NCBI GenBank assembly: GCA_051531975.1
Contig: JAOPTT010000009.1
Span: forward strand, 224,001-288,000
DNA from: Spirochaetaceae bacterium
Lineage (GTDB): Bacteria; Spirochaetota; Spirochaetia; DSM-2461
Length of the DNA stretch: 64,000 nt
Direction of reading: 5' to 3'
Below the pieces are notes generated by a model. It was not told the DNA's origin. It saw nothing but the letters and a program-made list of their open reading frames with translations, and made no database searches. Shown here piece after piece: positions 37,381 to 53,080 of this stretch (position 1 is the first letter of the stretch; each line of letters begins with the position of its first letter). The position numbers and the translations under genes are program-made.

Positions 37381-38025
37381 TTATACAATAAAATCTAAAT
37401 TGTCACCATTAATTCCTACATAAGCTCCTCTTTTTACTGCAGGGGAGTCGTTATGGCATATTAACCACTTGTTTTGCATAAACAGTGTATTATCTGTAGT
37501 ACTGTTTTTTAACGGTGAATTAGTACCAGTAGGTAGAACTATAATTGTACAAAATGGGGTTTCTGATGTTCTACAAGGAGCTAGATGAAGTGTTCCAGCA
37601 TATAGTTCAACTGCGGTACCTTTAGGTAGATAAAAACACTGGGTCAGAGATGAATTCCAGCTATCATTAACAATATCTGTATGTTTTCCTAACATTAAAA
37701 CAACATCAGTAACTGATATAATAACCTCACTGCTTTTATGCCATTCCATCCCATTTAATAGGGTGTTATTCCCAAAACAAATACCAGTCTGAATTTCTAT
37801 TTCACCAAAAACAGTATCTTTTAGATATGTAAAAGATGGGGTTTTATGAAGAGACTCTATATCTTTAAAATATGTTGGACCATCTTTTTCCATAGCCTTT
37901 AGAGCATCTGAAAACATAGGGGCAAAGTTATGGCCTTTTAATTGATGACCATAAAATGTGAACTCCTTAGAGTCCACATTAAATAGCTGTAGGTTAGGGT
38001 TTAGTTCTCTAAGTCTTTCTAACAT
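37381..38025 (-). CDS. DUF4867 family protein (SftX-like, associated with sulfoglycolysis clusters)
   Basis: 'IQTGICFGNN...LNGMEWHKSSE', 'ELYAGTLHLAPC', 'LPTGTN', 'NKWLICH'. Overlaps the stop of the SQase gene. Confidence 0.8.
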   Translation of the reverse strand: MLERLRELNPNLQLFNVDSKEFTFYGHQLKGHNFAPMFSDALKAMEKDGPTYFKDIESLHKTPSFTYLKDTVFGEIEIQTGICFGNNTLLNGMEWHKSSEVIISVTDVVLMLGKHTDIVNDSWNSSLTQCFYLPKGTAVELYAGTLHLAPCRTSETPFCTIIVLPTGTNSPLKNSTTDNTLFMQNKWLICHNDSPAVKRGAYVGINGDNLDFIV

Positions 38026-40010
38026 TCTGCTAAACCCTTAAAAAGTTCTGCATGTTTTGAGTCTTTTTTGTAAAATACTGGTGGCTCACCAATTGGGCTT
38101 TTAACTGTTACCCAACCACCTTTATATTCTTTGCCACTCCAAACATGAATCCACTGGTCATCTGGTAGATAAACCTTCCAGGTTTTTTTCCCTTTTTTAC
38201 AAACAGGGGCGACCAACAGATCAGAACCATACATATATTGGTATTTTAATTTATGTAGTTGTTCATCATTTTCATAATGGATAAAAGCATGTCTTACTGG
38301 AGGTATTCCTGTCTCCTGATACTCAGTTGATAGTTCTTTATGGTATGGCTTTAAAGTAGTATATATTCTAGTCATTTTTGCTAAGTGTGTCAGTGTATCT
38401 TTATCGGAATTAAACTGCCAGTTCGAACCTGGTCTGTTTCCTTCATGTGTTCTCATTATTTGAGTAAAAGCTGACATTTCACCCCAACGTTTAAATAGTT
38501 CTTTAGAACGTTTTATCCAAGCAATTGTAGTGTAACCACCTAAGTCTGAGTGAGTATAACCAATACCTGTAAATCCCATTGAAATTGAACCTGGTATAAC
38601 TGTTGCAAAACCGTTGTCATGGCTCCAGTTAACTAGCTGGTCACCATTCCAGTTCATTGCTGAGTATTTAGAAGAACCTGTATAAGCGGCTCTCATAAAA
38701 AATGTTACCTTATCTTCTGCCCCAGCTTCTTTTACAGCCTCGTGGTTAGCTTTTGCCCAATCGGCAGCGTACTGGTTATGGTATATTTCTGCATCTACTC
38801 CAGAATATAAAACAGCGTCTGTTGGAACATATTCACCAAAATCAGCCATCCAACCAGATAGACCGTTGCCTATCATATCTCTTTTAATAACTTCTTTAAT
38901 CCAAGTGTATGCTTCTGGGTTTGTAAGGTCTATCATAGCTGCTGGAAATGTTGTTATATAGACATAATAATCATCCCCATCCTTGTTTTTAACACAGTAG
39001 TTTTTCTCTTTTGCCTCTGCGTAAAGTGGGCCTTCAAGTGCTAAAAATGGGTTGATGTAACCCATAAACTTTATGCCTTTGTCATTTAGTTTTTTAACAT
39101 AATCTTTAAAGCCTGGGTATAGTTTTTCATCTGGTTTCCAGTCCCAAAATAGCTGCTTTCCAAAAGATGTAATTCTAATACCTTCCCAGTCCTGACACCA
39201 TATAGAGGCAACTTTAACTCCAGTATCTAAGGCATCTTGTAGCTTTTTATCTACAACTTCTGAACCACCTTGTAATCCTAACCACATTCCATCGTAAACC
39301 CACTCTGGAGGGGATACCTGTCTACCTAAGAATTCCGATAAATTAGTTAATGTTAATGGTGCACTCTCCCCAGCTCCAATAATTAAGGTTTCTGGAACTT
39401 CCCAGAAATCTAATTTATGAATGTTTTTATCTTTAAAATTAAATTCACAATAGGCAGTACCTTCCGAGTGGAAATACCAGTTATTTGAAGATACAAACGT
39501 TGGTTGAGAAAAATATGTGGTAAAAGAGTTGCCTCCATAACCCATTTTTAACTCAGCTAGAAGTGTTATAGCATCTTTACCACGACCTAAACCTGGTTCT
39601 TGTACCCAAATTGGTACATTTTGACCTCTAAGGTCTAGTTTTGAGTACTGTTCACCGCAGCCGTAGATATGTTCTTTCTCGATTGCAGGTAATACCATAG
39701 AAAACCTATTTATATCTCTGTTAGATGTTCTAGGTTTTATGTGTACTCGGCCGTCTTGCTCTATAAAGTCAACTGTTAAACTATTAAGAAAGTCTATGGT
39801 TACACTTTTGGAGCTGCTTTCAATAATAGTGAAGTTACTACAGTTCTCTAACTGTAAATTTTTGTTCTTAATCTTAAAAAGGCCATAATTGAATTTGTAT
39901 TTCCCAATACCTTTTCCAATATAAAAAGCCGGCTTGTTTACACTATGTTCAATTATTACTCTATTATTTAATGTAATGCTAAAACTATTTTCATTGTTAA
40001 GTAATTTCAT
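38019..40010 (-). CDS. yihQ: GH31 sulfoquinovosidase (YihQ-like)
   Basis: 'YGCGEQYS', 'WLGLQGG', 'WCQDWEGIRITSFGKQLFWDW', nucleophile 'WMADFGE', acid/base 'WNGDQ', 'HSDLGGYT', 'RTHEGNRP'. Confidence 0.88.
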   Translation of the reverse strand: MKLLNNENSFSITLNNRVIIEHSVNKPAFYIGKGIGKYKFNYGLFKIKNKNLQLENCSNFTIIESSSKSVTIDFLNSLTVDFIEQDGRVHIKPRTSNRDINRFSMVLPAIEKEHIYGCGEQYSKLDLRGQNVPIWVQEPGLGRGKDAITLLAELKMGYGGNSFTTYFSQPTFVSSNNWYFHSEGTAYCEFNFKDKNIHKLDFWEVPETLIIGAGESAPLTLTNLSEFLGRQVSPPEWVYDGMWLGLQGGSEVVDKKLQDALDTGVKVASIWCQDWEGIRITSFGKQLFWDWKPDEKLYPGFKDYVKKLNDKGIKFMGYINPFLALEGPLYAEAKEKNYCVKNKDGDDYYVYITTFPAAMIDLTNPEAYTWIKEVIKRDMIGNGLSGWMADFGEYVPTDAVLYSGVDAEIYHNQYAADWAKANHEAVKEAGAEDKVTFFMRAAYTGSSKYSAMNWNGDQLVNWSHDNGFATVIPGSISMGFTGIGYTHSDLGGYTTIAWIKRSKELFKRWGEMSAFTQIMRTHEGNRPGSNWQFNSDKDTLTHLAKMTRIYTTLKPYHKELSTEYQETGIPPVRHAFIHYENDEQLHKLKYQYMYGSDLLVAPVCKKGKKTWKVYLPDDQWIHVWSGKEYKGGWVTVKSPIGEPPVFYKKDSKHAELFKGLAEC

Positions 40011-40013
40011 TTG

Positions 40014-40841
40014 TTAACCTTTTACAGCACCAGCTGTTAAGCCAGATATAATTTTATTATGAAACAGTATATAAACTACAATACTTGGGATAATTGTTAT
40101 AACAATTGCTGCATACATAGCAGTATAATCTGTTACAAACTGACTTGTGAAAAACCTAATACCTAACTGTAGTGTTCTAGACGATTCGGAAGACGTTAAA
40201 AGTAGAGCCATAATAAACTCATTCCATGCGTATATAAAACAGAATGTTCCCGCAGTAACTAAACCAGTCTGAGAGAGTGGTAAAATAACCTTAGAAAACC
40301 TTTGGAAAAAGCTAGCTCCATCTATAGTTGCAGCTTCTTCTAACTCTACTGGAATTGTTTTCATAAAAGATGTAGTTAAAAATACTGATATAGGTATATT
40401 TATTGTGCTATATACTAATATTAAAGCAAACAAAGTATCGTATAATTTAAGCTTTTGTATAATAGAGAAATAAGGAACCATAAAGGATATTATAGGAAGT
40501 AAAATTCCCGCTATTATTATTGTATATATAACATTTTTTCCTCTGAATTCTTCCCGTGCTAATATAAAAGAGGTAATAGCTGCAATAAATAGATTCAAAA
40601 ATACAGCAAATACAGCTACAAATGTAGAGTGTAAAAACAGGGTAGGTATGTTTGCTTTTTTCATTGCATTTACATAGTTTATAAACATCCATTTTTCAGG
40701 GAAACCAAAAGAGTTTGTCTGTAGTTCTAAGTTACTTGATTTAAAAGAAGCAAGTATTAACCAAATTATTGGATATAAGGCAACAAAAAGAAAGAAGCCT
40801 AATATAATCCATTTTAAAATATTACCGATTATTTTTTTCAA
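40014..40841 (-). CDS. Carbohydrate ABC transporter permease (putative SQ/SQ-glycoside uptake)
   Basis: 'ELEEAATIDGAS', 'WNEF', 'GLTAGAVKG'. Confidence 0.88.
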   Translation of the reverse strand: MKKIIGNILKWIILGFFLFVALYPIIWLILASFKSSNLELQTNSFGFPEKWMFINYVNAMKKANIPTLFLHSTFVAVFAVFLNLFIAAITSFILAREEFRGKNVIYTIIIAGILLPIISFMVPYFSIIQKLKLYDTLFALILVYSTINIPISVFLTTSFMKTIPVELEEAATIDGASFFQRFSKVILPLSQTGLVTAGTFCFIYAWNEFIMALLLTSSESSRTLQLGIRFFTSQFVTDYTAMYAAIVITIIPSIVVYILFHNKIISGLTAGAVKG

Positions 40842-40854
40842 TTTCTCGCTCCTA

Positions 40855-41724
40855 TTATGCGTTTATGCCGTCATTGGCTTTAGTTAAAAGTTTTCTGATT
40901 AGAACAATAACAACAGTTCCTAAGAATATTAGTATTACTCCAGTTGCATTTGCCTGTCCAAAACGGAAAGCATCCATTTTATGATATAAAATTAGACCCA
41001 TAACTGATGTTGAGTGTGCAGGTCCACCATTAGTCATTAAAAATGTTGCCTCAAAGTGTCGCATTCCATAGGCCATAGCAAGGGTTATAGTAGTAACTAA
41101 TATTCCCCTAATCATAGGAAGGGTAATATACCAATCTTGTCGAAATGCATCACAGCCATCTAACTCTGCTGCTTCGTAGTATGATTTTGGTATTGTAGTT
41201 GTTGCTGCTAATATAATTATCATGAAATAACCGATGTATAGTACTTGCTGAATAATTATTGAAGGTAGAGCTGTTCCTAATTCACCTAACCAGTTATGTC
41301 CATCGTTTCCAAATAGCTTTAAAAATGCATTTAGAAACCCGTACATAGGGTTATATATCGCCTTCCACATCATGGCAATTGCCACAGCGGATATAATGTT
41401 AGGTAAAAAGTATATTGTTCTAAGAGTTTTCCAACCCTTTGGTTTTCTAGCTAAGATTAGGGCTACAATTGTTGCAAATGGTATCTGTATAAAACCTCCA
41501 CTAAGTGCCCATATAATATTGTTTCTTATTGATAATCTGAAAGTATCATCAGAAAATAGTTTGTTGTAGTTTTCTAGACCTACAAACTTCATATCTGATA
41601 TACCATTCCATGTATGAAGGCTTGTAAATATTACAGATCCCAACGGATAGATAAAAAAGCAGACATATATTAATGTAACCGGTAAAAGGAATAACATTAT
41701 CTTTGTAATATTTTTATTTTTCAT
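40855..41724 (-). CDS. Carbohydrate ABC transporter permease (putative SQ/SQ-glycoside uptake)
   Basis: 'YYEAAELDG', 'MTNGGP'. ATG 41724 preceded by AAGGA. Confidence 0.88.
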   Translation of the reverse strand: MKNKNITKIMLFLLPVTLIYVCFFIYPLGSVIFTSLHTWNGISDMKFVGLENYNKLFSDDTFRLSIRNNIIWALSGGFIQIPFATIVALILARKPKGWKTLRTIYFLPNIISAVAIAMMWKAIYNPMYGFLNAFLKLFGNDGHNWLGELGTALPSIIIQQVLYIGYFMIIILAATTTIPKSYYEAAELDGCDAFRQDWYITLPMIRGILVTTITLAMAYGMRHFEATFLMTNGGPAHSTSVMGLILYHKMDAFRFGQANATGVILIFLGTVVIVLIRKLLTKANDGINA

Positions 41725-41790
41725 ACGCAACAAATCCTTATAATGTATAAAAAGGGGCACCTTTAATAGATGCCCCCGGTTTAAATTAAA

Positions 41791-43056
41791 TTATTGATCG
41801 TTAACTTTTTTTAACATTGCAACAAATTCTTCAGGTGTTGCACCGTCTAGAGCCATAAGACCTAGAGCCTGACCAAACTCACTAACAACCTCTGCAGAAA
41901 CCATTCCAGCTAGGTGAGGAATAGTAAAACTTGCATTGTTAGAAGCTTCAATAAACTTCTTTTGTAATGGATCGTTAATAGATGAAGCGTCGTATTTAAC
42001 AGCAAATAAAGAACCAGCTTGTTTAGAAATCTCTGCTACATTTTCAGCTTTTGTCATCCATTTAATAAACTTTACTGCTGCTGCTGCTTTAGCAGGATCA
42101 TCGGCATTTGCAGCTGCTGCTAAGTTAGTTTGTAAGAAACCAATTTGTGCACCTTTGTTTTTACCAAATGCTGGAGCAGGACCAACTTCAACTGCATCAT
42201 AAACTGATGGAGCATCTGATTTGATTCTACCGATATACCAAGGTCCATTAATAAACATTGCTGTATCTTCTGCTAAGAAATGACCACCAGAAACACCGGC
42301 GTCACCACCAACTGCATCTCTTGTAGTATTATCATTTAAGTACATAGAAAGTAAAACTTCCGCTGCTTGAACATAAGCAGGTCCTTTAAATAAGTTATCA
42401 TATACATCTTTTCCACCAAAAGACGCTAAAAAGTGTGAATAAAATAACATAGATGTCCAGGCATTAGATCCACCAGTCATCTGAGAAGTAGGTGTAATTC
42501 CAGCTTCTTTTAATTTTTCAGCTGCAGCTAAAAATTCTTTAGCTGTTTTAGGGTAATTTGAAATACCGGCCTTAGCAAAAAGGTCCATATTATATAAAAC
42601 AGGAGTAATTGCAACTTCATAAGGAAGTGATTTAACCATTCCATTAACAGTAGCTTGAGCTATTGTTCCTTCGTTAAAGTCTCTTTTCCATCCACCGTTT
42701 AGCTCACTAGAAAAATCCATTAATAGATCTGATTCATAATATGCTTTTGTAGAAGGGTTTAACTTCATTGTAAAAACATCAGGTACAATTCCAGCAGCAA
42801 TTGAAGTTCTCATTTTTTGCTCATAACCATCGTAATCTGGTTGTGCCTCAATAACAACTTTTATCATTCCAGCATTGTCAACATTAAACTGTTCAACTAA
42901 ATCTGCAACTGCAGCTGCTTTAGAGTCTTCTCCAACCCAGATGCATGGCCACTTTATAGTAACCTCTTTAGTTGCCTCTTCATTTTGACCACTTGCAAAT
43001 AGTGGACTAGCTAAAACCATAGCTAATGTTAGTGCCAGTAAATTAAATCTTTTCAT
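41791..43056 (-). CDS. ABC transporter substrate-binding protein (putative SQ/SQ-glycerol binding)
   Basis: SBP_bac_1 motifs 'VPDVF', 'LYNMDLF', 'AMFINGPW'. First gene of the operon that ends in the SQase and DUF4867 genes. Confidence 0.85.
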   Translation of the reverse strand: MKRFNLLALTLAMVLASPLFASGQNEEATKEVTIKWPCIWVGEDSKAAAVADLVEQFNVDNAGMIKVVIEAQPDYDGYEQKMRTSIAAGIVPDVFTMKLNPSTKAYYESDLLMDFSSELNGGWKRDFNEGTIAQATVNGMVKSLPYEVAITPVLYNMDLFAKAGISNYPKTAKEFLAAAEKLKEAGITPTSQMTGGSNAWTSMLFYSHFLASFGGKDVYDNLFKGPAYVQAAEVLLSMYLNDNTTRDAVGGDAGVSGGHFLAEDTAMFINGPWYIGRIKSDAPSVYDAVEVGPAPAFGKNKGAQIGFLQTNLAAAANADDPAKAAAAVKFIKWMTKAENVAEISKQAGSLFAVKYDASSINDPLQKKFIEASNNASFTIPHLAGMVSAEVVSEFGQALGLMALDGATPEEFVAMLKKVNDQ

Positions 43057-43072: not shown

Positions 43073-43093
43073 TTACTTACTCTAAGTAAGTAA
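43073..43093. promoter_or_regulatory. Putative ROK-regulator operator, site 1
   Basis: Perfect 9-3-9 palindrome TTACTTACT-cta-AGTAAGTAA just upstream of the SBP RBS. Confidence 0.75.
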
Positions 43094-43149: not shown

Positions 43150-44322
43150 CTAAATGGAGAAATAATTTGTAAAAACCATATCAGCTGCACCTCTACCAGC
43201 GTCTATAGGATCGTAGATGACATGTCTTATCTGTACGGTTTTCGAATTGTGACGCTCAGAGTCCTCTTTTAGTAGTTCCTGAGCATACTCTGCTAGTTTT
43301 TCAACGAAAAGAGCAGATCTAGATATAAGTAAAAATGTATCAGGTGAGAATGAACGAACTAGTATTTTTAATCCTTTTGTTAGTTGTTCAGCTTTCTCTC
43401 TTATATATGCATCCATTTCTGGCTCTGTTTTGATTAAATTATCAATCTCTAAAAAGCTAGTCGCGTTATACTTTTCTTTTAGGTCTTTTAGTATTGCAGG
43501 TTCAGCTAAATAGGACTCTAAACATCCAAATTCCCCACACTCACATTCATGGCCATTTGTATTTATACATATATGACCAACTTCCATTGCTGTAAGGCCG
43601 TTAGAAGTTAAATTTTTCCCTTCGTTTATAAAAGCACCACCAACTCCACTTCTAATAAGTAGGGTTATTAAGGCGTTAGATTCAGATACGGCCCCATATT
43701 GGTATTCATTCATTGCAATTACAGAACAGTTATTATTTACATATATAGGCACATTAAAAAACTCTTTCATTCTGTCTTTTAAGTGGTAGTCACTTAATCC
43801 ACTAATTCTATTAAAGTAGAAGACTGTTCCAGATGAGATATCAACTCTACCGGGAGCTCCAATTCCTATTCCAAGTATTTTATCCGGGTTTATTCCAGAT
43901 TCAATAATAGCTTCGTTAATTAGTTTTGTTAACATTACAAGAACAGATTCTCCTGTAAGTTCTCCTTTTAACTCTATAAAGTTATTAAAAACTGTTTTTT
44001 TATCAAAATTCTCTATAACAACAGATGCAGAGGTAGAGCAAAAATCTACTCCTACAATAAAAGCAGCCTTAGAGTTTATCTGGTAAAATACTGGTCTTCT
44101 GCCTTTCTTTTCACTTTTAACAGTGCTCTTTTTATTTATCTTAATTAACTTTTCAGTCTCTAGATTAGTAAATATTCTTAAAATTGTAGGAGGTTTTAAC
44201 CCTGTTAGATTAACTGCCTGGGACTGGGAAAGCTCTTTATGTTTATGGATAAGGTTTAATATGAGTTTTTCGTTTCTTTTTCTTATATCGTTACCTCTAA
44301 GAGGGGATTTTGTCTCTGGCAT
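43150..44322 (-). CDS. ROK family transcriptional repressor
   Basis: N-terminal HTH and 'KKGRRP', 'GIGIGAPG', 'SGVGGA', Zn motif 'EVGHI...CECGEFGCLE'. Confidence 0.92.
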   Translation of the reverse strand: MPETKSPLRGNDIRKRNEKLILNLIHKHKELSQSQAVNLTGLKPPTILRIFTNLETEKLIKINKKSTVKSEKKGRRPVFYQINSKAAFIVGVDFCSTSASVVIENFDKKTVFNNFIELKGELTGESVLVMLTKLINEAIIESGINPDKILGIGIGAPGRVDISSGTVFYFNRISGLSDYHLKDRMKEFFNVPIYVNNNCSVIAMNEYQYGAVSESNALITLLIRSGVGGAFINEGKNLTSNGLTAMEVGHICINTNGHECECGEFGCLESYLAEPAILKDLKEKYNATSFLEIDNLIKTEPEMDAYIREKAEQLTKGLKILVRSFSPDTFLLISRSALFVEKLAEYAQELLKEDSERHNSKTVQIRHVIYDPIDAGRGAADMVFTNYFSI

Positions 44323-44398
44323 TATTTACTTCCTGTTAATTAGTTTACTTAGTTTAACAGTATTTATCGAGAATTTACAAGAAAATAAAGAAATTATC

Positions 44399-44460
44399 TT
44401 TACATAGTTTCAGTTCGGTGTTAATTTGAATCATCTTATTTATTTACTGTAAGTAACTAA
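44399..44460 (+). promoter_or_regulatory. Sigma70 promoter plus putative ROK operator, site 2
   Basis: TTTACA (44399-44404), 17 bp, TGnTAATTT (-10 at 44422-44427). Operator TTATTTACTgtaAGTAACTAA at 44440-44460. Confidence 0.72.
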
Positions 44461-44477
44461 ATGAATTAGGAGTGATT

Positions 44478-45296
44478 ATGTCAAATGAAGATTTGAAAGA
44501 ATTAGAAGTAATAGCAAAAGAAGTTAGAAAGAATACAATAGACTCTATTGGATATCTTGGTGTTGGGCATATAGGTGGTGCAATGTCTATAGTTGAGTTA
44601 TTAACAATATTGTATTACAGAAAGATGAAAATCGATCCTAAAAATCCAAAAATGGAAGATAGGGATAAATTAGTTTTATCAAAAGGACATGCTGGTCCTG
44701 CTTTATATAGTATTTTAGCTCAGAAGGAATATTTTCCTATAGAGTGGCTTAGAACTCTTAACCAGGGTGGTACAAAATTACCAAGTCACTGCGACATGAA
44801 CATGACCCCTGGTATCGATATGACAACAGGGTCTTTAGGCCAAGGATTATCTAGTGCTATTGGTCTGTGTTTAGCAATGAAGCTTGATAAAATTGATCGA
44901 AACGTTTTTACAATAATCGGTGATGGTGAATCCCAAGAGGGTCAAAACTGGGAAGCTGCAATGACAGCAGCCCACTATAAGTTAAACAAGTTAATTGCAT
45001 TTACTGATAATAACAAAATGCAGATAGATGGTTATACAAACGAAATTATGCCAATAGATGATTTAGAAAAAAAATGGTCAGCTTTTGGTTGGAATACTCA
45101 AAGAATAGATGGGCATGATTTTAAAGCTTTAGATAAGGCTATTGATAATGCAAGAGCCTGTACTGATAAACCTTCCATGATCATTATGGATACGATTAAA
45201 GGTAAAGGTTGTACATTTGCAGAGGGTGTAATTACAAATCATAACATGGCGTTTACTCACGACGCTGCATTAGAAGCTATTAAGGCTTTAGGTTAA
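44478..45296 (+). CDS. sqwG: Split transketolase N-terminal subunit (sulfofructose transketolase SqwG-like)
   Basis: 'GHIGGAMS', 'SKGHAGP', 'TTGSLGQG', ThDP motif 'GDGESQEG...DNN'. Symbol inferred from cluster context. Confidence 0.8.
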   Translation: MSNEDLKELEVIAKEVRKNTIDSIGYLGVGHIGGAMSIVELLTILYYRKMKIDPKNPKMEDRDKLVLSKGHAGPALYSILAQKEYFPIEWLRTLNQGGTKLPSHCDMNMTPGIDMTTGSLGQGLSSAIGLCLAMKLDKIDRNVFTIIGDGESQEGQNWEAAMTAAHYKLNKLIAFTDNNKMQIDGYTNEIMPIDDLEKKWSAFGWNTQRIDGHDFKALDKAIDNARACTDKPSMIIMDTIKGKGCTFAEGVITNHNMAFTHDAALEAIKALG

Positions 45297-45306
45297 GGGG
45301 GATAAA

Positions 45307-46251
45307 ATGTCAGATAAAGATATGAGAGAAGTATATACAAATACATTAATAAAAATGGCTGAAACTAACGATAAAATTTGTGTTATGGAAGCGGATTTAA
45401 TGAGAGCAACAGGTACTTTTCCTTTTAGAGATAAGTTCCCAGAAAGAACTTTTAATGTAGGTGTTGCAGAGGCAAACATGGTAGGTGTGGCATCTGGTCT
45501 ATCTGCTGGTGGAAAGATTCCATTTGCAGCAACATTTGGTTGTTTTGCAGCAAGAAGAACTTTTGATCAATTTTTCATCTCTGCAAACTATGCTAAACAA
45601 AACGTTAAACTAGTTGGAACTGATCCTGGTGTTTCTGCAGCATTTAATGGTGGAACACATATGCCTTTCGAAGACGTTGGTATGATGCGTTGTATACCTA
45701 ATCTAGTAATTTTTGAACCTTCAGATACTGTATCTTTAGCTAAACTATTAGTGCAATCAGCTGAACATAAAGGTTCAACTTACATGCGATTACAACGAAA
45801 GGGTAAAAACACAAGATATAACGATGATGATGAAATTATTTTAGGTAAAGGTAAGGTTATTCAGGAAGGAACAGATGTAACAATTATTGCAACTGGTTAT
45901 GTCCTTGTAGAAGAGGCTGTAAAAGCGACTGAAATCCTAACTAAAGAGGGTCTTTCTGTAAAACTAATTGATATGCATACAGTTAAACCATTAGATAGAG
46001 ATCTAATTTTAGAGTGTGCAAAAAGTACTAAAGCAATAGTAGTATGCGAAAATCATCAAAAAGCTGGTGGTCTTTATTCAGCTATAGCTGAACTTTTAGC
46101 AGCAGAATACCCAACTTTAATGCAAGCAGTTGCAGTAGAAGATAAATTTGGTCAGGTTGGAACATTAGATTTCTTAAAACAAGCTTATGGTTTTACAGCA
46201 GATAACATTGTAAATAAAACAAAACAATTATTAGGGAGAAAAAATGGATAA
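45307..46251 (+). CDS. sqwH: Split transketolase C-terminal subunit (SqwH-like)
   Basis: 'NVGVAEANM', 'GGTHMPFED', 'TVKPLD', 'CENH'. Symbol inferred from context. Confidence 0.8.
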   Translation: MSDKDMREVYTNTLIKMAETNDKICVMEADLMRATGTFPFRDKFPERTFNVGVAEANMVGVASGLSAGGKIPFAATFGCFAARRTFDQFFISANYAKQNVKLVGTDPGVSAAFNGGTHMPFEDVGMMRCIPNLVIFEPSDTVSLAKLLVQSAEHKGSTYMRLQRKGKNTRYNDDDEIILGKGKVIQEGTDVTIIATGYVLVEEAVKATEILTKEGLSVKLIDMHTVKPLDRDLILECAKSTKAIVVCENHQKAGGLYSAIAELLAAEYPTLMQAVAVEDKFGQVGTLDFLKQAYGFTADNIVNKTKQLLGRKNG

Positions 46252-46732
46252 AATTAAACTAGCAATAGCGTCGGACTTGTCAGGGTTTCCACTAAAACAA
46301 GCAATTGTTGCCCACTTAGAAGAGAACTATAAAGACAAAATCGAAGTAGTTGATTTTGGTATAGAGAGTGAAGATAAACCTCAACCATATTTTGTTCAGG
46401 CTCCTAAAGTTGCAAAAGTAGTACAGAGTGGGGAAGTAGATAAAGGTATTTTAATCTGTGGAACTGGTCAGGGTATGGCTATTGTTGCAAATAAATATAG
46501 AGGTGTTTATGCATCTGTTGTAGATAGTGTTTTCTCTGGAGAGAGATCTAAAATTATTAACAATGCAAATGTTATTACTATGGGTGGTTGGATAACAGCA
46601 CCATTTTTAGGATTACAAATTGTTGATGGTTGGTTATCTATGGCATTTACTCAAAAAATGGAGTTCAAAAAAGACTTCTTAACAAATGCTTTTAACGAAG
46701 TTCAAAAGATTGAGGAAGAAATTTATGGCTGA
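46244..46732 (+). CDS. sqwI: RpiB/LacAB family isomerase (4-deoxy-4-sulfoerythrose isomerase SqwI-like)
   Basis: 'GILICGTGQGMAIVANK', 'NNANVITMG'. Lacks the canonical DH and RHxxR residues. Symbol inferred from context. Confidence 0.72.
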   Translation: MDKIKLAIASDLSGFPLKQAIVAHLEENYKDKIEVVDFGIESEDKPQPYFVQAPKVAKVVQSGEVDKGILICGTGQGMAIVANKYRGVYASVVDSVFSGERSKIINNANVITMGGWITAPFLGLQIVDGWLSMAFTQKMEFKKDFLTNAFNEVQKIEEEIYG

Positions 46733-48140
46733 TACAAAATTAATAATTGCAAATCTTGTCGACAGAGCAAGAAAAGCACAATCTTTGGTTAATTCTTATT
46801 CTCAGACACAACTTGATGATATTTGCCTTTCCATTGCCTGGGAAATGTACAATGATGAAAATATTAAAATCTTAGCTGAAATGGCTGTCGAAGAGACAGG
46901 TATGGGAAATGTTTCTGATAAAATCAAAAAACATAAAGGAAAAGTCCTTGGTATTATTACCGATGTGAAAGGTGTAAAATCTACTGGACTTATTGACCAT
47001 GATACAAAAACTAAAATTAAAAAATATGCTAAACCTGTCGGTGTTGTAGGAGCTTTGACTCCTGTAACTAATCCCACAGCAACACCAGCAAGCAATGCTG
47101 TTTCTATCTTAAAAGGTGGGAACGCTGTTATATTCGCTCCTCACCCTAAATCAAAAAATTGTTCAAAAAAAGCAATAGATTTTATGAGACAGGGACTAAA
47201 AAAAGTGGGAGCTCCAGTCGATTTGATTCAGATTGTAGAAGAACCTTCTATTGAAGGTACAGGTGAACTAATGGCCCAGGTTGATCTTGTCCTAGCTACT
47301 GGTGGTGGAGCCATGGTAAAAGCTGCTTATTCTAGTGGAACTCCAGCTTATGGTGTAGGACCTGGAAACTCAGTTCAGATAATATCTGAAGATGCTGATA
47401 TTAAAGATGCAGTGGCAAAAGTTGTTTTGAGTAAATGTTTTGATCATGCTACATCCTGTTCATCGGAGAACTCGATAATTGTAGAGGACTCTGTATATGA
47501 CGAAGTTGTGACTAACCTAAAAGCTAGCGGATCATATCTCTGTAATAACAGTGAAAGAGAGACTCTAGGTAACTGGATGTGGATAAAAAACTCTAAAGGT
47601 TTCAGATCAATAAACCCATCCATAGTCGCTAAATCCGCTAAAGTTATAGCCGAGGGTGCAGGGCTTAAAGTACCTGAAACAACAGAAATTTTACTTGTTG
47701 AAGGGTCTATGCCCCTGGAAGATGATTTTTTCAGTCAAGAGAAATTATCACCTGTTTTAACAATCTGGAAATATTCAGGTTTTGATAATGCAATGGAGAT
47801 TCTTACAAGACTTACAGATAATTGTGGTACAGGTCATTCTTGCGGTATTCATACATTTACTGATTCATATGTAGAGAGAATGTCTCTAGAGATGAAAACC
47901 AGTCGTATTATGGTAAACCAGCCCCAGGCTCCAGCCAACGGTGGAAACTTTTTTAACGGTATGGCCTCGACAACAACATTGGGTTGCGGTACATGGGGTG
48001 GAAATATCACCACAGAAAATATTACTTACAAGCATTTTTTGAACATTACATATGTTTCACAGTGGTTTCCTCCGGTAAAACCGGAAGATGTTGATATCTG
48101 GGGTGAATTTCACAAAAAATACAGAACTGATAGGAAATAA
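46725..48140 (+). CDS. sqwD: CoA-acylating aldehyde dehydrogenase (sulfoacetaldehyde dehydrogenase SqwD/SauS-like)
   Basis: 'PVTNPTAT', 'APHP', 'ATGGGAMVKAAYSSGTPAYGVGPGN', 'FDHATSCSSENS', 'EKLSPVL', 'LGCGTWGGN'. Symbol inferred from context. Confidence 0.78.
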   Translation: MADTKLIIANLVDRARKAQSLVNSYSQTQLDDICLSIAWEMYNDENIKILAEMAVEETGMGNVSDKIKKHKGKVLGIITDVKGVKSTGLIDHDTKTKIKKYAKPVGVVGALTPVTNPTATPASNAVSILKGGNAVIFAPHPKSKNCSKKAIDFMRQGLKKVGAPVDLIQIVEEPSIEGTGELMAQVDLVLATGGGAMVKAAYSSGTPAYGVGPGNSVQIISEDADIKDAVAKVVLSKCFDHATSCSSENSIIVEDSVYDEVVTNLKASGSYLCNNSERETLGNWMWIKNSKGFRSINPSIVAKSAKVIAEGAGLKVPETTEILLVEGSMPLEDDFFSQEKLSPVLTIWKYSGFDNAMEILTRLTDNCGTGHSCGIHTFTDSYVERMSLEMKTSRIMVNQPQAPANGGNFFNGMASTTTLGCGTWGGNITTENITYKHFLNITYVSQWFPPVKPEDVDIWGEFHKKYRTDRK

Positions 48141-48142
48141 AT

Positions 48143-49264
48143 ATGAAACTATTTGAATACCAGGCTAAAGAGACTTTTAAACGTTATGGAATAACAATTC
48201 CGAATAGTGTAGTTATTACTTCTATCGATGAACTGAAAGATGCAACAGATAAAATAGGATTTCCTCTTGTTTTGAAATCACAAATTTTAATGGGCGGTCG
48301 TGGTAAAGCTGGACTTATCCCTTTTGTCAGGGATGAAAAAGAAGTCAAAGAAAAATGCGAAATGCTATTTGCATCGGAATACAATGTAAATACAATCCTT
48401 GTGGAAGAAGCTGTTGATATCAAAAAAGAAATTTATCTCTCAATTACTGTTGATCCAGTAACTGCTTCTCATATGGTTATAGCCTGTGCTGACGGTGGTG
48501 TGGAGATTGAAATTCTTGCAGTGGACTCACCTGAAAAAATCTTAAGAGAATTTGTCGATCCAAATCTTGGACTTATGCCGTTCCAGATTAAAGATATTGC
48601 ATTTCGTTTAGGATTTGAGGGTGATGTGATGAAAAAATTCTCATCAGTTCTAACCAAACTATATGAAGCTTTTTTAAAAAATGATGCAGAACTCATAGAA
48701 ATAAATCCACTATTTATTACAGGCAATGATGATGTTATAGCCGGGGATGGGAAATTATCAATCGATGATAACTCTACTTTCCGACAGGACACATATAAGA
48801 AAACACGGGATTATTACGATTCTGATGCTGAATATGAATCGGCTCTAGAGGGGATTCCTTATTTGCAATTTGATGGAGATATCAGCCTTATGTGTGCCGG
48901 GGCTGGACTTACGACGACAGTTTACGATCTTATCAATTATGAAGGTGGAACTGTTGCAAATTACCTTGAATTTGGTGGCCCCAACTACAAAAAGGCGTTA
49001 AAAGCCATGGAGTTGTGCCTGAAAAATGATTCCAAAGTTATTTTGATGGTTACTTTTGGTACAATTGCCAGAGCCGATGTTATGGCTGAAGGTATTGTAG
49101 ATGCTATTAAAAGACTTAAACCCGATCGTCCTATTGTCACCTGTATTAGAGGTACAAATGAAGAGGAAGCAAGCAGAATATTAAAAGCTGCCGGATTGGA
49201 ACCTCTTTACGATACAGAGGAAGCTGTCAGAAAAGCAATTTCAATTGCAGCGGGGGTTAAATAA
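48143..49264 (+). CDS. sqwK: Succinyl-CoA-synthetase-like beta subunit (ADP-forming sulfoacetate-CoA ligase)
   Basis: 'MKLFEYQAK', 'GGRGKAG', 'EINPL'. Substrate loops differ from SucC ('MCAGAGL', 'TFGTIARAD'). Symbol inferred from context. Confidence 0.72.
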   Translation: MKLFEYQAKETFKRYGITIPNSVVITSIDELKDATDKIGFPLVLKSQILMGGRGKAGLIPFVRDEKEVKEKCEMLFASEYNVNTILVEEAVDIKKEIYLSITVDPVTASHMVIACADGGVEIEILAVDSPEKILREFVDPNLGLMPFQIKDIAFRLGFEGDVMKKFSSVLTKLYEAFLKNDAELIEINPLFITGNDDVIAGDGKLSIDDNSTFRQDTYKKTRDYYDSDAEYESALEGIPYLQFDGDISLMCAGAGLTTTVYDLINYEGGTVANYLEFGGPNYKKALKAMELCLKNDSKVILMVTFGTIARADVMAEGIVDAIKRLKPDRPIVTCIRGTNEEEASRILKAAGLEPLYDTEEAVRKAISIAAGVK

Positions 49265-50148
49265 TGAGCATATTTATTGATGAAAATACACAAGTTCTGA
49301 TTCAGGGAATCACCGGTAAAGAGGGAAGATTCTGGACAGAGCATATGATAGGTTGTGGAACTAACGTAGTTGCTGGAGTTACCCCTGGAAAAGAGGGACA
49401 GCAGGTTGAAGGGAAAGATGTATATCATTCTGTTAGAAGAGCTGCCCAAGAAGTCGATGTAGAGGCTACCATGTTATTTGTACCTCCAAGATTTACTAAA
49501 GATGCAGTTTTTGAAGCTCTGGATTCAGGGATTAAAAAAATTGTTACTGTTGCAGACGGAATCCCTCTACACGATGCTATTCAGATTAGAAAAGCTGCTT
49601 TATCAGAAGGAGCCTTGGTAATCGGTGGTAATACATCAGGTGTTATATCTCCTGGAAAAGCAATGATGGGGTTTTTCCCATACTGGATCAAAAGAGTATA
49701 TAAACCCGGACGAATAGGAGTTATGACTAGAAGTGGATCTTTAACAAACGAAGTTACAGCTATGATTGTTAAGGCCGGATTTGGTGTTTCATCTTTAATC
49801 GGAATAGGTGGAGACCCTGTACCAGGAACTAGATTTGCAGAGATGCTCCCCTATTATGAAGCTGACAGTGAAACTGATGCCGTAGTAATTATCGGAGAAC
49901 TTGGTGGATCCATGGAAGAGGAATGTGCCCAGATGAAAAGAGATGGTTTATATACAAAACCTCTTGTTGCTTTTCTTGGTGGACGGACTGCTCCTGAAGG
50001 AAAAACAATGGGCCATGCTGGTGCTATTGTTTCCGGAGGAAAAGGTTCAGTTAAAGATAAAATTGAAGCGTTAGAAAGTGTCGGTGGTAAAGTTGCTGAA
50101 AGACCTCGTTTTGTTGGAGATCTATTAAAAGAGGTACTAAAAAAATGA
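49264..50148 (+). CDS. sqwL: Succinyl-CoA-synthetase-like alpha subunit (ADP-forming sulfoacetate-CoA ligase)
   Basis: 'QGITGKEG', 'GVTPGKEG', 'RSGSLTNE', 'GIGGDP', phospho-His 'MGHAGA'. Symbol inferred from context. Confidence 0.72.
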   Translation: MSIFIDENTQVLIQGITGKEGRFWTEHMIGCGTNVVAGVTPGKEGQQVEGKDVYHSVRRAAQEVDVEATMLFVPPRFTKDAVFEALDSGIKKIVTVADGIPLHDAIQIRKAALSEGALVIGGNTSGVISPGKAMMGFFPYWIKRVYKPGRIGVMTRSGSLTNEVTAMIVKAGFGVSSLIGIGGDPVPGTRFAEMLPYYEADSETDAVVIIGELGGSMEEECAQMKRDGLYTKPLVAFLGGRTAPEGKTMGHAGAIVSGGKGSVKDKIEALESVGGKVAERPRFVGDLLKEVLKK

Positions 50149-51593
50149 GTATAGTTAACAGAAAAAAATTACTTTATCTCGGACTGGCTTTTATTGTTAT
50201 GCTAATAGTGATGGTATTTCCTTTTTCGGAATCTGTAAGAGGTGCTGGTAAAGGTTTTTTGACCCATGAAGGGCAAATAGCAATGGCAATACTTCTTTTC
50301 AGCCTTGTTTTATGGATGACAGAAGCTCTGCCTTTTCATATAACTGGAATGTTAAGTGTTGTTCTCCTTGCTATTTTTAATGTTGATACTTTTAAAAATA
50401 TTATAAATGTTGGTTTTGGAAATCATATTATTGCGTTTTTTATCGGTGTATTGGTACTTTCTGCATTTATTACAAAATCGGGTCTTGGAAAAAGAATCAG
50501 TGTATTTTTATTATCCAAAACAGGAAATAGTACAAGTCTGATAATTTTGGGGTTTATGGTAGTTGGTGCGACCTTATCAATGTGGATTACAAATATGGCT
50601 GTTGCAGCTATGTTACTTCCTCTTGGTGTTTCTATTCTTGATGAAGAGGGTTGTCTCAGACTAAAAAGTAATTTTGGAAAAGCTCTTATGATCGCCTGTG
50701 TTTGGGGCCCACTAATCGGTGGAATCGGAACACCTGCAGGAGCAGGTCCAAATCCTATTGCTATCGGTTTTCTAAAAGAGATGGCAGGTGTTGATCTTAG
50801 TTTTACTCAGTGGATGAAATATGGAATCCCTGCAGTTATTCTGCTTCTTCCTATTGGATGGGCTCTGCTTATATTAATGTTTAAACCTGAAATGAAACAT
50901 CTTAAAAAAACAAAAGAGGACCTCCGGCACGAATATGATAATTATCCTCCTATGGGCCGTGAGGAAAAACTTACTCTTGTTATTTTCCTTCTAACAGTTG
51001 TTCTATGGTTGACTTCAGGAATGATTGGAAAAGCTATTGGAATATCTATTCCAGTTTCAATGCCGGTACTGTTTACTGCTACACTTTTCTTTTTACCTGG
51101 AGTAACAGGATTAAAATGGAAAGAGATTGAGGAAGATATTTCCTGGAGTGGAATAATATTGGTTGTTACTGGAATTTCTATTGGGATGATGCTCTATCAG
51201 ACAGGAGCTGCTGGATGGCTCTCTTTTGTTCTACTCGGAGGAATAGGTGATTTCTCTCCTTTAATGAGAGTCGGGGCTATTGTCTTTATCGTTATGATTT
51301 TAAAAATTGCTCTCTCGAGTAATTCGGTTACAGCAACAATTGTTATTCCTATAATGATTGCACTGGCTGATAATCTTGGACTAGATGCACTGTCAATTGC
51401 ACTGCCGGCAGCCATAACAGCCTCTCTTGCATTTATACTAGTTACATCGAGTCCAACCAATGTTATACCCTATTCAGCAGGATTCTTTTCAATTAGGGAC
51501 TTTGCAAAATCAGGAATTATCATGACACTTTTTACAACTGTAATAGTCTCTTTGGTTATATATTTCGTTGGAAGAGCATCCGGTTTATATTAA
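50145..51593 (+). CDS. DASS/SLC13 family anion transporter (putative sulfoacetate exporter)
   Basis: 'WMTEALP', 'SMWITN', 'GGIGTPAGAGPN', 'LSSNSVTA', 'SSPTN'. Confidence 0.82.
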   Translation: MSIVNRKKLLYLGLAFIVMLIVMVFPFSESVRGAGKGFLTHEGQIAMAILLFSLVLWMTEALPFHITGMLSVVLLAIFNVDTFKNIINVGFGNHIIAFFIGVLVLSAFITKSGLGKRISVFLLSKTGNSTSLIILGFMVVGATLSMWITNMAVAAMLLPLGVSILDEEGCLRLKSNFGKALMIACVWGPLIGGIGTPAGAGPNPIAIGFLKEMAGVDLSFTQWMKYGIPAVILLLPIGWALLILMFKPEMKHLKKTKEDLRHEYDNYPPMGREEKLTLVIFLLTVVLWLTSGMIGKAIGISIPVSMPVLFTATLFFLPGVTGLKWKEIEEDISWSGIILVVTGISIGMMLYQTGAAGWLSFVLLGGIGDFSPLMRVGAIVFIVMILKIALSSNSVTATIVIPIMIALADNLGLDALSIALPAAITASLAFILVTSSPTNVIPYSAGFFSIRDFAKSGIIMTLFTTVIVSLVIYFVGRASGLY

Positions 51594-51615: not shown

Positions 51616-51658
51616 AAAACCGATTTTGCTTAATAGATATAAGTAAAATCGGTTTTTT
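51616..51658. terminator. Bidirectional intrinsic terminator
   Basis: AAAACCGATTTTGCTTA / TAAGTAAAATCGGTTTT stem with T-run, between convergent genes. Confidence 0.8.
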
Positions 51659-52170
51659 TATCTGATGGAATCTGCTGTTTCCTTTGCAAGTGTAACATAT
51701 TTCTCCGCACTTAGTTTTATCTGTTCATACTGCTCATCTGTAACAGTTTTAATAGCTCTACCTGGATTCCCGATAATTAATGATCGCGCAGGATAAACCT
51801 TTCCCTTTGTTACCAATGTTCCAGCACCGACAATAGAACCTTCTCCTATTTCAGCATTATCCAGGACAATAGAACCCATACCTATTAGACATCTATTTCC
51901 TATTGTACATGCATGAATAACAGCATTGTGACCAACGGTTACATCATCTCCAATTATAGTTGGGGAATCTTTACTTACATGAACAGTTGCATTGTCCTGT
52001 ATATTCGTTCTTTTCCCTATACTTATAGATGCAACATCCCCCCGGACAGTAACTCCGAACCATATTGAAACATTTTCTGCCAATAATACATCTCCAATTA
52101 TGAAACAGCCTGGTGCTTCAAGGGCAATATTATTTAAACAGGGTTTTTTCTCTTTGTATTTTAACTGCAT
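51658..52170 (-). CDS. Gamma carbonic anhydrase family protein (YrdA/CaiE/PaaY-like)
   Basis: 'IIGDV', 'VRGD', 'NIQDNATVH', 'VGHNAVIHAC', hexapeptide repeats. ATG 52170 follows GGAG. Confidence 0.88.
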   Translation of the reverse strand: MQLKYKEKKPCLNNIALEAPGCFIIGDVLLAENVSIWFGVTVRGDVASISIGKRTNIQDNATVHVSKDSPTIIGDDVTVGHNAVIHACTIGNRCLIGMGSIVLDNAEIGEGSIVGAGTLVTKGKVYPARSLIIGNPGRAIKTVTDEQYEQIKLSAEKYVTLAKETADSIR

Positions 52171-52236
52171 AATCGCTCCAATTATTTTAAGTTTAACAGA
52201 TCTATGCTTTTTATAGCAACAAACCATTTTTATATC

Positions 52237-52298
52237 TTTACATAAATTTCATTCAATGTTAACTTAAATTAGAATACTTATTTACCTTAAGTAACTAA
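52237..52298 (+). promoter_or_regulatory. Sigma70 promoter plus putative ROK operator, site 3
   Basis: TTTACA (52237-52242), 17 bp, TGnTAACTT. Operator TTATTTACCttaAGTAACTAA at 52278-52298, same spacing as the 44399-44460 block. Confidence 0.72.
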
Positions 52299-52318
52299 AG
52301 GCAGGAGGGGAGAGTAAC

Positions 52319-53080
52319 ATGGAAGAAATTTTAGATGCAACTAAACATAATGCTATAGAAAGCAGTTGTTTACTTAGTGAAGTATTTAACCAAAATAGTT
52401 CAAATTTAGACTGGCTAGCACTATCTGATATGAGAATTCAGAATAATAGATCTGCAGAGATCTCGTATAAAAACGAAGAGACATTAATTGTAAACCTTGA
52501 CGGGAATGTTCATGTATATGTTGATGGTGTTGACTACTTAGTAAAACATTACGATATGTTATATATCCCAATAGATACACCTTTTTCTGTTGAACAACAT
52601 GGTGAGGAAGAAGCTCATTTATATCTTTACAGAGCAACTGGTGATGTTAAATATGTAACTTACCACGCTGACTATGAAGCTTGTAAAAAAGATGAAGAGA
52701 GAATTAGATACTTAAATAAAAAAGTAGTATATAAAATGTTCGATGTAACTGAAAAAGCTAATAAGTTTATGGTTGGTTATACATTCTACGAATCAAGAAC
52801 TAGAGCTTGGCCTCCACATAACCACACAGACCAAGAAGAAGTTTACAGCTTTATTGAAGGTAATGGTGCAATGGAAGTTTATGCAGATGACGAAAACAAA
52901 ACTTTTGTTTCTTCTGTATCAGTGGGGGATCATATTACAATTCCTATACTTAACTATCACCCTGTTTTTAGTCACGATGAGCCATTATGTTTTATCTGGT
53001 GTATTTCTGGTGAGAGATACTGGGTTGGAGATAAAAATAAGGACTTCATGACTGCAAAAGTTGATAAGTTAACAACATAA
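52319..53080 (+). CDS. IolB/KduI family bicupin sugar-acid isomerase (candidate sulfoquinovose isomerase)
   Basis: Metal motif 'WPPHNHTDQEEVY...NYHPV', N-terminal cupin 'EETLIV...DMLYIP'. Strong RBS. Confidence 0.75.
   Translation: MEEILDATKHNAIESSCLLSEVFNQNSSNLDWLALSDMRIQNNRSAEISYKNEETLIVNLDGNVHVYVDGVDYLVKHYDMLYIPIDTPFSVEQHGEEEAHLYLYRATGDVKYVTYHADYEACKKDEERIRYLNKKVVYKMFDVTEKANKFMVGYTFYESRTRAWPPHNHTDQEEVYSFIEGNGAMEVYADDENKTFVSSVSVGDHITIPILNYHPVFSHDEPLCFIWCISGERYWVGDKNKDFMTAKVDKLTT

Follow-up and report, generated by a model that had tools for sequence, protein, structure and literature searches.

The window, a 64,000-nucleotide stretch of a Spirochaetaceae genome, holds a gene cluster for the breakdown of sulfoquinovose (SQ), an abundant plant sulfur-sugar, and a bicupin gene close beside it (Table 1). 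The sulfoquinovosidase, SqwGH, SqwI, SqwD and SqwKL all fall within this one cluster by family and synteny. The Sqw names were assigned in that way, not by comparison with the original Sqw sequences. Together they make up the sulfoacetate-forming sulfo-transketolase (sulfo-TK) gene set as it is described in the available text of PMC11659671, PMC12890257 and PMC9594981. All downstream genes of the sulfoacetate variant of Chu et al. 2023, as relayed in the available parts of PMC11659671 and PMC12890257, are in the window. The window cluster differs from that variant in having the cupin and no SqvD, and its DASS transporter is the likely exporter. Every sulfo-TK gene is present except the SQ isomerase. 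Neither YihS nor SqvD is in the cluster, just as the original prediction had said of the known isomerase types. The transketolase operon of the window does not end with the cupin, for a carbonic-anhydrase gene intervenes and the cupin has an operator of its own. In the close relatives L003, L005 and L231 the cupin directly follows the DASS gene, with no carbonic-anhydrase gene at this position.

Table 1. Features of the SQ cluster and the cupin gene, with positions in the window
Feature	Position	Strand	Basis or detail
DUF4867 protein (SqvB/SftX), putative ring-opening enzyme or mutarotase	37381..38025	-	family match; role from available text of PMC11968277, PMC9594981
GH31 YihQ-type sulfoquinovosidase	38019..40010	-	PRK10426 880 bits, cut-off 553; 47% identical to E. 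coli YihQ
ABC sugar transporter, two permeases and binding protein	40014..43056	-	binding protein scanned; permeases by sequence and synteny
Operator before ABC/YihQ/SqvB operon	43073..43093		weight-matrix rank 2, 26.4 bits
ROK-family regulator with N-terminal HTH	43150..44322	-	family matches
Operator before transketolase operon	44440..44460		weight-matrix rank 1, 27.6 bits
Split transketolase (SqwG/SqwH-like)	44472..46251	+	family matches
RpiB-family isomerase (SqwI-like, sulfoerythrose isomerase)	46244..46732	+	family matches
CoA-acylating sulfoacetaldehyde dehydrogenase (SqwD/SauS-like)	46686..48140	+	best family NF047625, 513 bits vs cut-off 600
Succinyl-CoA-synthetase-like beta and alpha subunits (SqwKL-like sulfoacetate-CoA ligase)	48143..50148	+	family matches
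DASS/SLC13 anion transporter, putative sulfoacetate exporter	50145..51593	+	family matches
Gamma-carbonic-anhydrase-like gene between DASS and cupin, outside the system	51658..52227	-	family matches
Putative cupin promoter: TTTACA, 17 nt, extended -10-like box	52237..52265	+	conserved spacing
Near-palindromic operator upstream of cupin	52278..52298		weight-matrix rank 3 genome-wide, 25.0 bits
KduI/IolB-fold bicupin, candidate SQ -> 6-deoxy-6-sulfofructose (SF) isomerase	52319-53080	+	253 aa

There is no ATPase gene in the cluster for the ABC transporter, which presumably shares one encoded elsewhere. In the cluster YihQ, Gln takes the place of Arg301 of the E. coli enzyme, the residue that we regard as binding sulfonate; the same Gln is found in 21 of 29 other YihQ matches from spirochaete and metagenome loci. 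Elsewhere in the window, a histidine kinase (58436-60280) whose N-terminal domain resembles an ABC ATPase adjoins a sigma-54-type regulator and a sugar ABC system. Some other sulfo-TK clusters (L182:5550-6653, L183, L187-L190, L249, L282, L284) carry a DUF362-type Fe-S gene beside the ROK gene or between it and the gene for the ABC binding protein.

The cupin ORF starts with ATG, preceded by a purine-rich Shine-Dalgarno-like run. It matches Pfam PF04962 (KduI/IolB) over residues 24-235 with 52.2 bits against a cut-off of 23.9, and the motif PPHxH...EExY...YHP read from it earlier is there as PPHNH, EEVY and YHP. It does not reach the NCBIfam equivalog cut-off for either KduI (NF002091, 42 vs 250 bits) or IolB (TIGR04378, 37 vs 205 bits). 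Family and structure searches gave no match of the cupin to PF02952 (the FucI fold) or NF048012, and it has none to the AGE family PF07221. A profile search at E<=1e-40 gathers a subfamily of 1,227 proteins, whose names are generic where any is given. The closest relatives carry the titles Spirochaetaceae or Spirochaetales. The cupin family forms a clade of 66 rows (98% SH-aLRT) in a quick tree of 106 rows, apart from the IolB-like and KduI-like rows; this tree left out every second locus from 25 to 80 and gave long-branch warnings.

One can imagine that the cupin is an ordinary IolB or KduI of inositol or uronate catabolism that sits near the SQ cluster by chance. The database names of its homologues, which include 5-deoxy-glucuronate isomerase as well as cupin, would fit this. 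So would the acidobacterial neighbours of the family (Gfo/Idh/MocA, TIM-barrel and aldehyde dehydrogenase proteins), which loosely resemble iolG, iolE and iolA. However, those neighbours score far below IolG and IolE, the cupin is far below both equivalog cut-offs, and its clade is a separate one. Our scan of 16 further ORFs between 35877 and 58423 assigned none of them to an iol or kdu gene, which agrees with the earlier reading of the neighbourhood. Homologues lying mainly in inositol or pectin loci had been named as evidence that would count against an SQ role; a single PfkB-kinase query found no match in 80 cupin loci, and as far as our tests reach the homologues do not lie in such loci. 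The shared SQ operator and the co-occurrence with SqwI in 9 of 9 genomes, both described below, already largely refute this reading, and we regard it as scarcely credible.

The AlphaFold2 model of the cupin is a bicupin with a pLDDT of 94.5. Its best structural match is the IolB-like STM4420 (PDB 2QJV; Z 23.7, rmsd 2.9 A, 223 residues), and KduI (9kcz) matches with Z 21.6 and rmsd 2.1 A over 198 residues. Further bicupins trail the top match by only 2-3 Z units, and the function can therefore not be read from the fold by itself. IolB (5-deoxy-glucuronate isomerase) shares the Pfam family of the cupin as well as this best match. It differs in having 17% identity to the cupin and an iol operon that the cupin lacks, and the two IolB-like rows of the tree stand outside the cupin clade.

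The likeness to KduI lies in the bicupin fold, the metal site and several cleft residues. In the available text of PMC10792219, the Lacticaseibacillus KduI holds its metal by His198, His200, Glu205 and His248, and its cleft binds sulfonate buffers with contacts from Arg163 and Thr184. A HMMER alignment places the four ligands on His167, His169, Glu174 and His214 in the C-terminal cupin, all invariant in 50 sequences. KduI Arg163, Ile165, Thr184, Tyr207 and Trp260 align to Lys135, Val137, Thr155, Tyr176 and Trp227, each conserved in at least 90% of the cupin alignment. KduI Arg203 is replaced by Gln172, which we count against the isomerase reading. Other differences are a structure-based identity of 14-18%, a C-terminal ERYWVG motif peculiar to the family, with Arg233 invariant, and a context that is sulfoglycolytic, not one of kduD or pectin. 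Judging from conservation, Arg233 together with the conserved Arg128, Arg130, Arg162 and Lys239 are candidates for a sulfonate pocket. The isomerase chemistry is proposed by analogy, since KduI and IolB isomerise C1/C2 of C6 sugar acids; the cupin would likewise interconvert the aldose and ketose forms of an anionic C6 sugar. Extracts in which E. coli KduI is overexpressed convert glucuronate faster, according to the available text of PMC3578941; glucuronate corresponds to SQ with a carboxylate at C6.

Since the cluster lacks a known SQ isomerase, it is worth asking whether the genome has one elsewhere. The host genome is 98.5% complete in 29 contigs. Family searches with PF07221 and PF02952 alone are insensitive: the PF07221 control missed E. 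coli, and PF02952 missed a paralogue on contig C6 that the SqvD and NF048012 searches found. Protein queries and a local phmmer search over 6,008 ORFs took their place. In searches of the host for isomerases of the YihS and SqvD/SftI types, no orthologue of YihS or SqvD was found genome-wide, only distant paralogues in unrelated contexts, and the check proposed with the original prediction thus comes out in its favour. E. coli YihS finds a single AGE-family protein at 25 bits, in an unrelated context, whose best family is N-acylglucosamine 2-epimerase. There are three genes of the FucI fold. The first is a true FucI beside an FGGY kinase. The second (C7:246381, 493 aa) sits between an FGGY kinase, a fused transketolase and a GH43 gene, a pentose context. 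The third (G000:C6:700011, 474 aa) is AraA-like and comes after a monosaccharide ABC system that includes an AraC regulator. The SftI model, whose cut-off is 700, gives the 493-aa and 474-aa paralogues 62 and 55 bits, and it gives the SqvD-like gene in the SQ cluster of genome G210 158. We count the two weak host hits against our reading.

The regulatory sequences tie the cupin to the cluster. Our 21-nt operator matrix was trained on 17 regions upstream of transketolase and binding-protein genes, all of them in genomes other than the host, because we wished to avoid circularity. The three highest sites in the host are those of Table 1, and the best site outside the cluster reaches 19.7 bits in 10.9 million host genome positions. 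None of the FucI-fold paralogues is among the top 25 sites, so a yihS or sqvD under the same operator elsewhere, the finding that had been named as fatal to the idea, did not turn up. The block upstream of the cupin (52235-52300) and that upstream of the transketolase (44397-44462) are identical at 49 of 66 nt without gaps, and the next best match in about 10.9 million genome positions is 39 of 66. The claim of a promoter-operator block common to both therefore stands. A sigma-70 scanner did not call the promoter before the cupin, since no more than 3 of the 6 positions of its -10 box match. The spacing TTTACA-17 nt-(TGn)TAnnnT is found at several related upstream regions, including the one before the transketolase gene, and from this conserved spacing we infer the promoter hexamers of the cupin. 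The ROK repressor of the cluster probably binds the operators. The two blocks are alike even in the promoter spacer, unlike the corresponding pairs in relatives. This suggests a local duplication as the source of the cupin promoter, at the time the gene became separated from the operon.

Of 23 spirochaete loci, 14 have an operator of at least 16 bits in the 150 nt before the cupin, and one more has a site of 10.7 bits. Half of these 14 (7) are close relatives with an identical site. Most spirochaete cupins with the operator are far from the SQ cluster, so the gene keeps its operator even after moving off. All five further loci (L099, L203, L205-L207) have it as well. It is absent before the cupin in the other 8 of the 23. 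In three of these (L003, L005, L018) the cupin is a downstream gene of an operon, and in two (L022, L023) it lies beside a different ROK gene. The last three (L006, L007, L008) have no context to account for the absence and we count them against our argument.

The distribution of the cupin was examined in sets that were not chosen by it. SqwI occurs in 9 of the 38 genomes of the host order, and the full-length cupin (57-100% identity) occurs in the same 9, four of which are also among the 80 cupin loci discussed below. None of the 9 has SqvD at E<=1e-8. Nor does one more genome of this order (77% complete), which has a cupin fragment at a contig end beside a transaldolase and an aldehyde dehydrogenase. 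Across a phylum sample of 400 genomes SqwI is found in 5. G380, a single contig, has the cupin inside its SQ cluster and no match to PF02952, SqvD or YihS. In G210 and G323, also one contig each, there is no cupin, and the SQ cluster contains an SqvD/SftI-like gene. The cupin is present in G175, where SqvD found no match. In G105 (80% complete, 770 contigs) the only cupin match is 39 residues long, and we draw no conclusion from this genome. The other genomes of the sample have no match better than 23-32%. Of the 201 genomes in the family of G323, 8 carry its type of SqvD with an identity of at least 60%, and the cupin subfamily is missing from all 201.

Metagenomes give the same picture. Among the best 80 of 450 loci selected by SqwI, 10 have the cupin, 19 an SqvD-like gene, none both and none YihS; the 51 with neither isomerase are mostly short, and we count them against our argument. 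Nine of the 10 cupins lie immediately before the transketolase, which is the slot of the SqvD-like gene in L281, L309 and L310. Two other ORFs were considered as isomerases and rejected. One, of about 350 aa, precedes the transketolase in metagenome loci that lack an isomerase; Pfam gives no hit for it, and it looks like a lipoprotein. The other, of about 370 aa between the ROK and binding-protein genes in the SQ clusters of several genomes (L182, L183, L189, L190), is of the DUF362 Fe-S type. The distributions of SqvD and the cupin are almost perfectly complementary, and the single exception is G426. This supports the proposal that the cupin fills the isomerase gap. The counts overstate the independent events, because the genomes are related, many are incomplete MAGs and several loci are near-duplicates. 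Given these near-duplicates and a pattern at the level of lineages, the number of independent replacements is small.

We also took the best 80 of 166 relatives of the cupin in GTDB species genomes. These loci comprise 23 from Spirochaetota, and the rest are mostly from Verrucomicrobiota, Planctomycetota, Lentisphaerota and Acidobacteriota. The cupin is accompanied by a transketolase in 11 of the 80 and by a transaldolase in 22, together 33. The remaining 47 have neither in the flank examined and are counted against us. Ten loci have TauE exporters, and 10 have genes like those for the metabolism of sulfolactate or cysteate. YihS and both SqvD queries match none of the ORFs in the 80 loci. The spirochaete genomes with the cupin have SqwI in 18 of 23 cases vs 5 of 400 in the phylum sample; four of the other five have a YihQ orthologue and one has a cupin-transaldolase-TauE arrangement. 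The homologues are in SQ clusters without yihS or sqvD, or co-regulated with them, as the prediction would have it. At the level of whole genomes none of the 80 has a YihS orthologue, and 5 have partial matches of 22-30%. The MAG G426 has, in addition to the cupin, an evident SqvD homologue of 41% identity next to a class II aldolase, and this is a real exception. FucI-fold paralogues of 25-31% identity are present in about 10 Verrucomicrobiota and Planctomycetota genomes with the cupin, and they weigh against our reading; known SQ isomerases are mutually only about 32% identical, in the part of the literature available to us. The contexts inspected (L136-L147, L164-L167, L175) have no SQ marker except a transaldolase in two. 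Transaldolase matches are found in 38 of 62 genomes in a search that had no control set and does not separate SF from ordinary transaldolases, and we do not rest any argument on it. Since the cupin is found in both transketolase and transaldolase clusters, it points to the one step that they share.

We argue that the cupin is very probably a third, non-orthologous SQ isomerase, which by analogy with KduI and IolB would convert SQ to SF with the help of a metal and replace SqvD or YihS. A role at the entry step is very probable because the gene is co-regulated with the pathway and is found where both known enzymes are missing. The enzyme would be a metal-dependent aldose-ketose isomerase of KduI/IolB fold, with Zn the probable metal, that acts on open-chain SQ. 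Its reaction would be the entry step common to the sulfo-transketolase and sulfo-transaldolase pathways. SqvD/SftI has the same proposed reaction and pathway position, and in some clusters the same slot before the transketolase. It differs in its unrelated fucose-isomerase fold, in never joining the cupin in the 80 SqwI loci, and in being clearly present in only one of the 80 cupin genomes. YihS, the AGE-family SQ isomerase of sulfo-EMP, likewise has the same proposed reaction and an unrelated fold, and it is metal-independent according to the available text of PMC9594981. In the window the route would start with import by the ABC transporter, after which YihQ would free SQ and SqvB may open its ring. 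The cupin would then make SF, and SqwGH and SqwI would remove two ketol units. SqwD and SqwKL would yield sulfoacetate and ATP, and DASS would export the sulfoacetate. A single ROK repressor would govern all three transcription units.

Another scenario makes the cupin an accessory enzyme that opens the ring of SQ or SF, or a mutarotase, and leaves the isomerisation to an unlinked enzyme, either the C6 or C7 paralogue of FucI/AraA fold or a promiscuous housekeeping isomerase. Cupins can catalyse ring opening: SqvB belongs to the cupins too, and the available text of PMC11968277 names KdgF as a parallel. The host does have two FucI/AraA-fold paralogues and an AGE-family protein, and many clusters outside the spirochaetes have no visible SqvB. 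However, SqvB and the cupin are found together in G000, L004, G380, G509, L241 and L242. The cupin does not accompany SqvD but excludes it. G380 has no FucI-family hit at all. The C7 paralogue is in a pentose context, the C6 paralogue is behind a monosaccharide ABC system with an AraC regulator, and neither is in the top 25 operator sites. We find this scenario quite unlikely.

It is also conceivable that the cupin is an isomerase or epimerase for another 6-sulfohexose, of manno or galacto configuration, that feeds the same transketolase or transaldolase. Sulfofucose catabolism exists, in the text available to us. The Gln of the cluster YihQ could be taken the same way, as could the acidobacterial loci that have a different oxidoreductase and a TIM-barrel protein for YihQ/SqgA. 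However, Arg or Gln at this position does not follow the isomerase type. Gln is found with SqvD (L102, L303), and Arg is found in clusters or genomes with the cupin (L184, L242, L244). The rest of the cluster is collinear with and similar to clusters that bear SqvD, such as that of G210. We judge another substrate very unlikely, and SQ isomerisation remains our preferred reading.

Open-access literature, with subscription papers outside its scope, gave no description of a cupin, IolB-like or KduI-like SQ isomerase. This agrees with the original prediction, which knew of none; the papers that define sulfo-TK (Liu 2021, Chu 2023) are known to us through papers that cite them. The word cupin is absent from the available text of PMC12890257, PMC11659671, PMC13219744, PMC13436972 and PMC9594981, and in that of PMC11968277 it refers to SqvB/SftX. 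The novelty of a cupin SQ isomerase is thus likely but not established. The pathway and the fold are both known and their pairing is undescribed, and this is probably a new enzyme class for the SQ -> SF step.

A broader claim seems to us somewhat favoured. The subfamily as a whole would be a third class of SQ isomerase and would mark sulfoglycolysis missed by surveys in Spirochaetota, Verrucomicrobiota, Planctomycetota, Lentisphaerota and Acidobacteriota. This would include compact clusters with an ordinary-like transaldolase, clusters with genes of the sulfolactate-desulfonation type that may mineralise SQ fully in one organism, and possibly an acidobacterial release from glycosides by a 3-dehydrogenase and a TIM-barrel protein. 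According to the available text of PMC13372026, an aquatic survey of 2026 used BLAST hits to known SQ isomerases to define its sulfo-TK and sulfo-TAL clusters. Clusters that use the cupin would score as absent or incomplete. If the claim is true, abundant phyla of soil, freshwater and sediment join the primary SQ degraders, the KduI/IolB family gains a new reaction, and more than 1,000 proteins now named 5-deoxy-glucuronate isomerase or cupin get corrected.

Several cupin loci are compact units of transaldolase, Gfo/Idh/MocA protein, aldehyde dehydrogenase and cupin. The best PDB hit of the Gfo/Idh/MocA protein in these units is the GH188 sulfoquinovosidase SqgA (8QC2), at only 97 bits. The Arg of the sulfonate loop is kept in 6 of 7 members that match the pattern, and the Lys of the loop is mostly kept, at its own position or next to it. 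We rejected the idea that every Gfo/Idh/MocA neighbour is a GH188 sulfoquinovosidase, as the merged cluster splits into 20 groups. SqgA is the best hit for one group and the third for another, and the acidobacterial group is nearer to glycoside 3-dehydrogenases. Nine acidobacterial loci (L055, L058, L067, L070, L073, L075, L077, L078, L079) have no YihQ or SqgA hit and share a conserved pair of TIM-barrel (AP_endonuc_2) and Gfo/Idh/MocA genes. This pair may be another route that releases SQ from glycosides.

In L181 (G414) and L014 the SQ cluster and the surroundings of the cupin have many split ORFs, which may be sequencing frameshifts of this assembly. The transaldolases adjacent to the cupin (L072:223-867) resemble ordinary small transaldolases (258 bits) more than the Bacillus SF-transaldolase (156 bits). 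Ala replaces the usual motif Ser, presumably the phosphate-binding one, in 18 of 20 of them (L072:223-867 and 19 related). They may be an independently evolved SF transaldolase. Clusters of cupin, transaldolase and aldehyde dehydrogenase in L046, L053, L074 and L077 (also L024, L035, L040, L048, L071 and L080) include altronate-dehydratase-like genes, which we take to be SuyAB-like, or sulfolactate-dehydrogenase-like, LarA racemase or threonine-synthase-like genes. This suggests complete desulfonation of SQ in one organism. In the verrucomicrobial loci L033, L036, L037, L039, L040, L042, L043, L054 and L068 the cupin occurs with a TIM-barrel protein, a glycoside 3-dehydrogenase, an MFS transporter, a 281-aa protein and a PIG-L deacetylase, sometimes joined by a B12 radical SAM enzyme.
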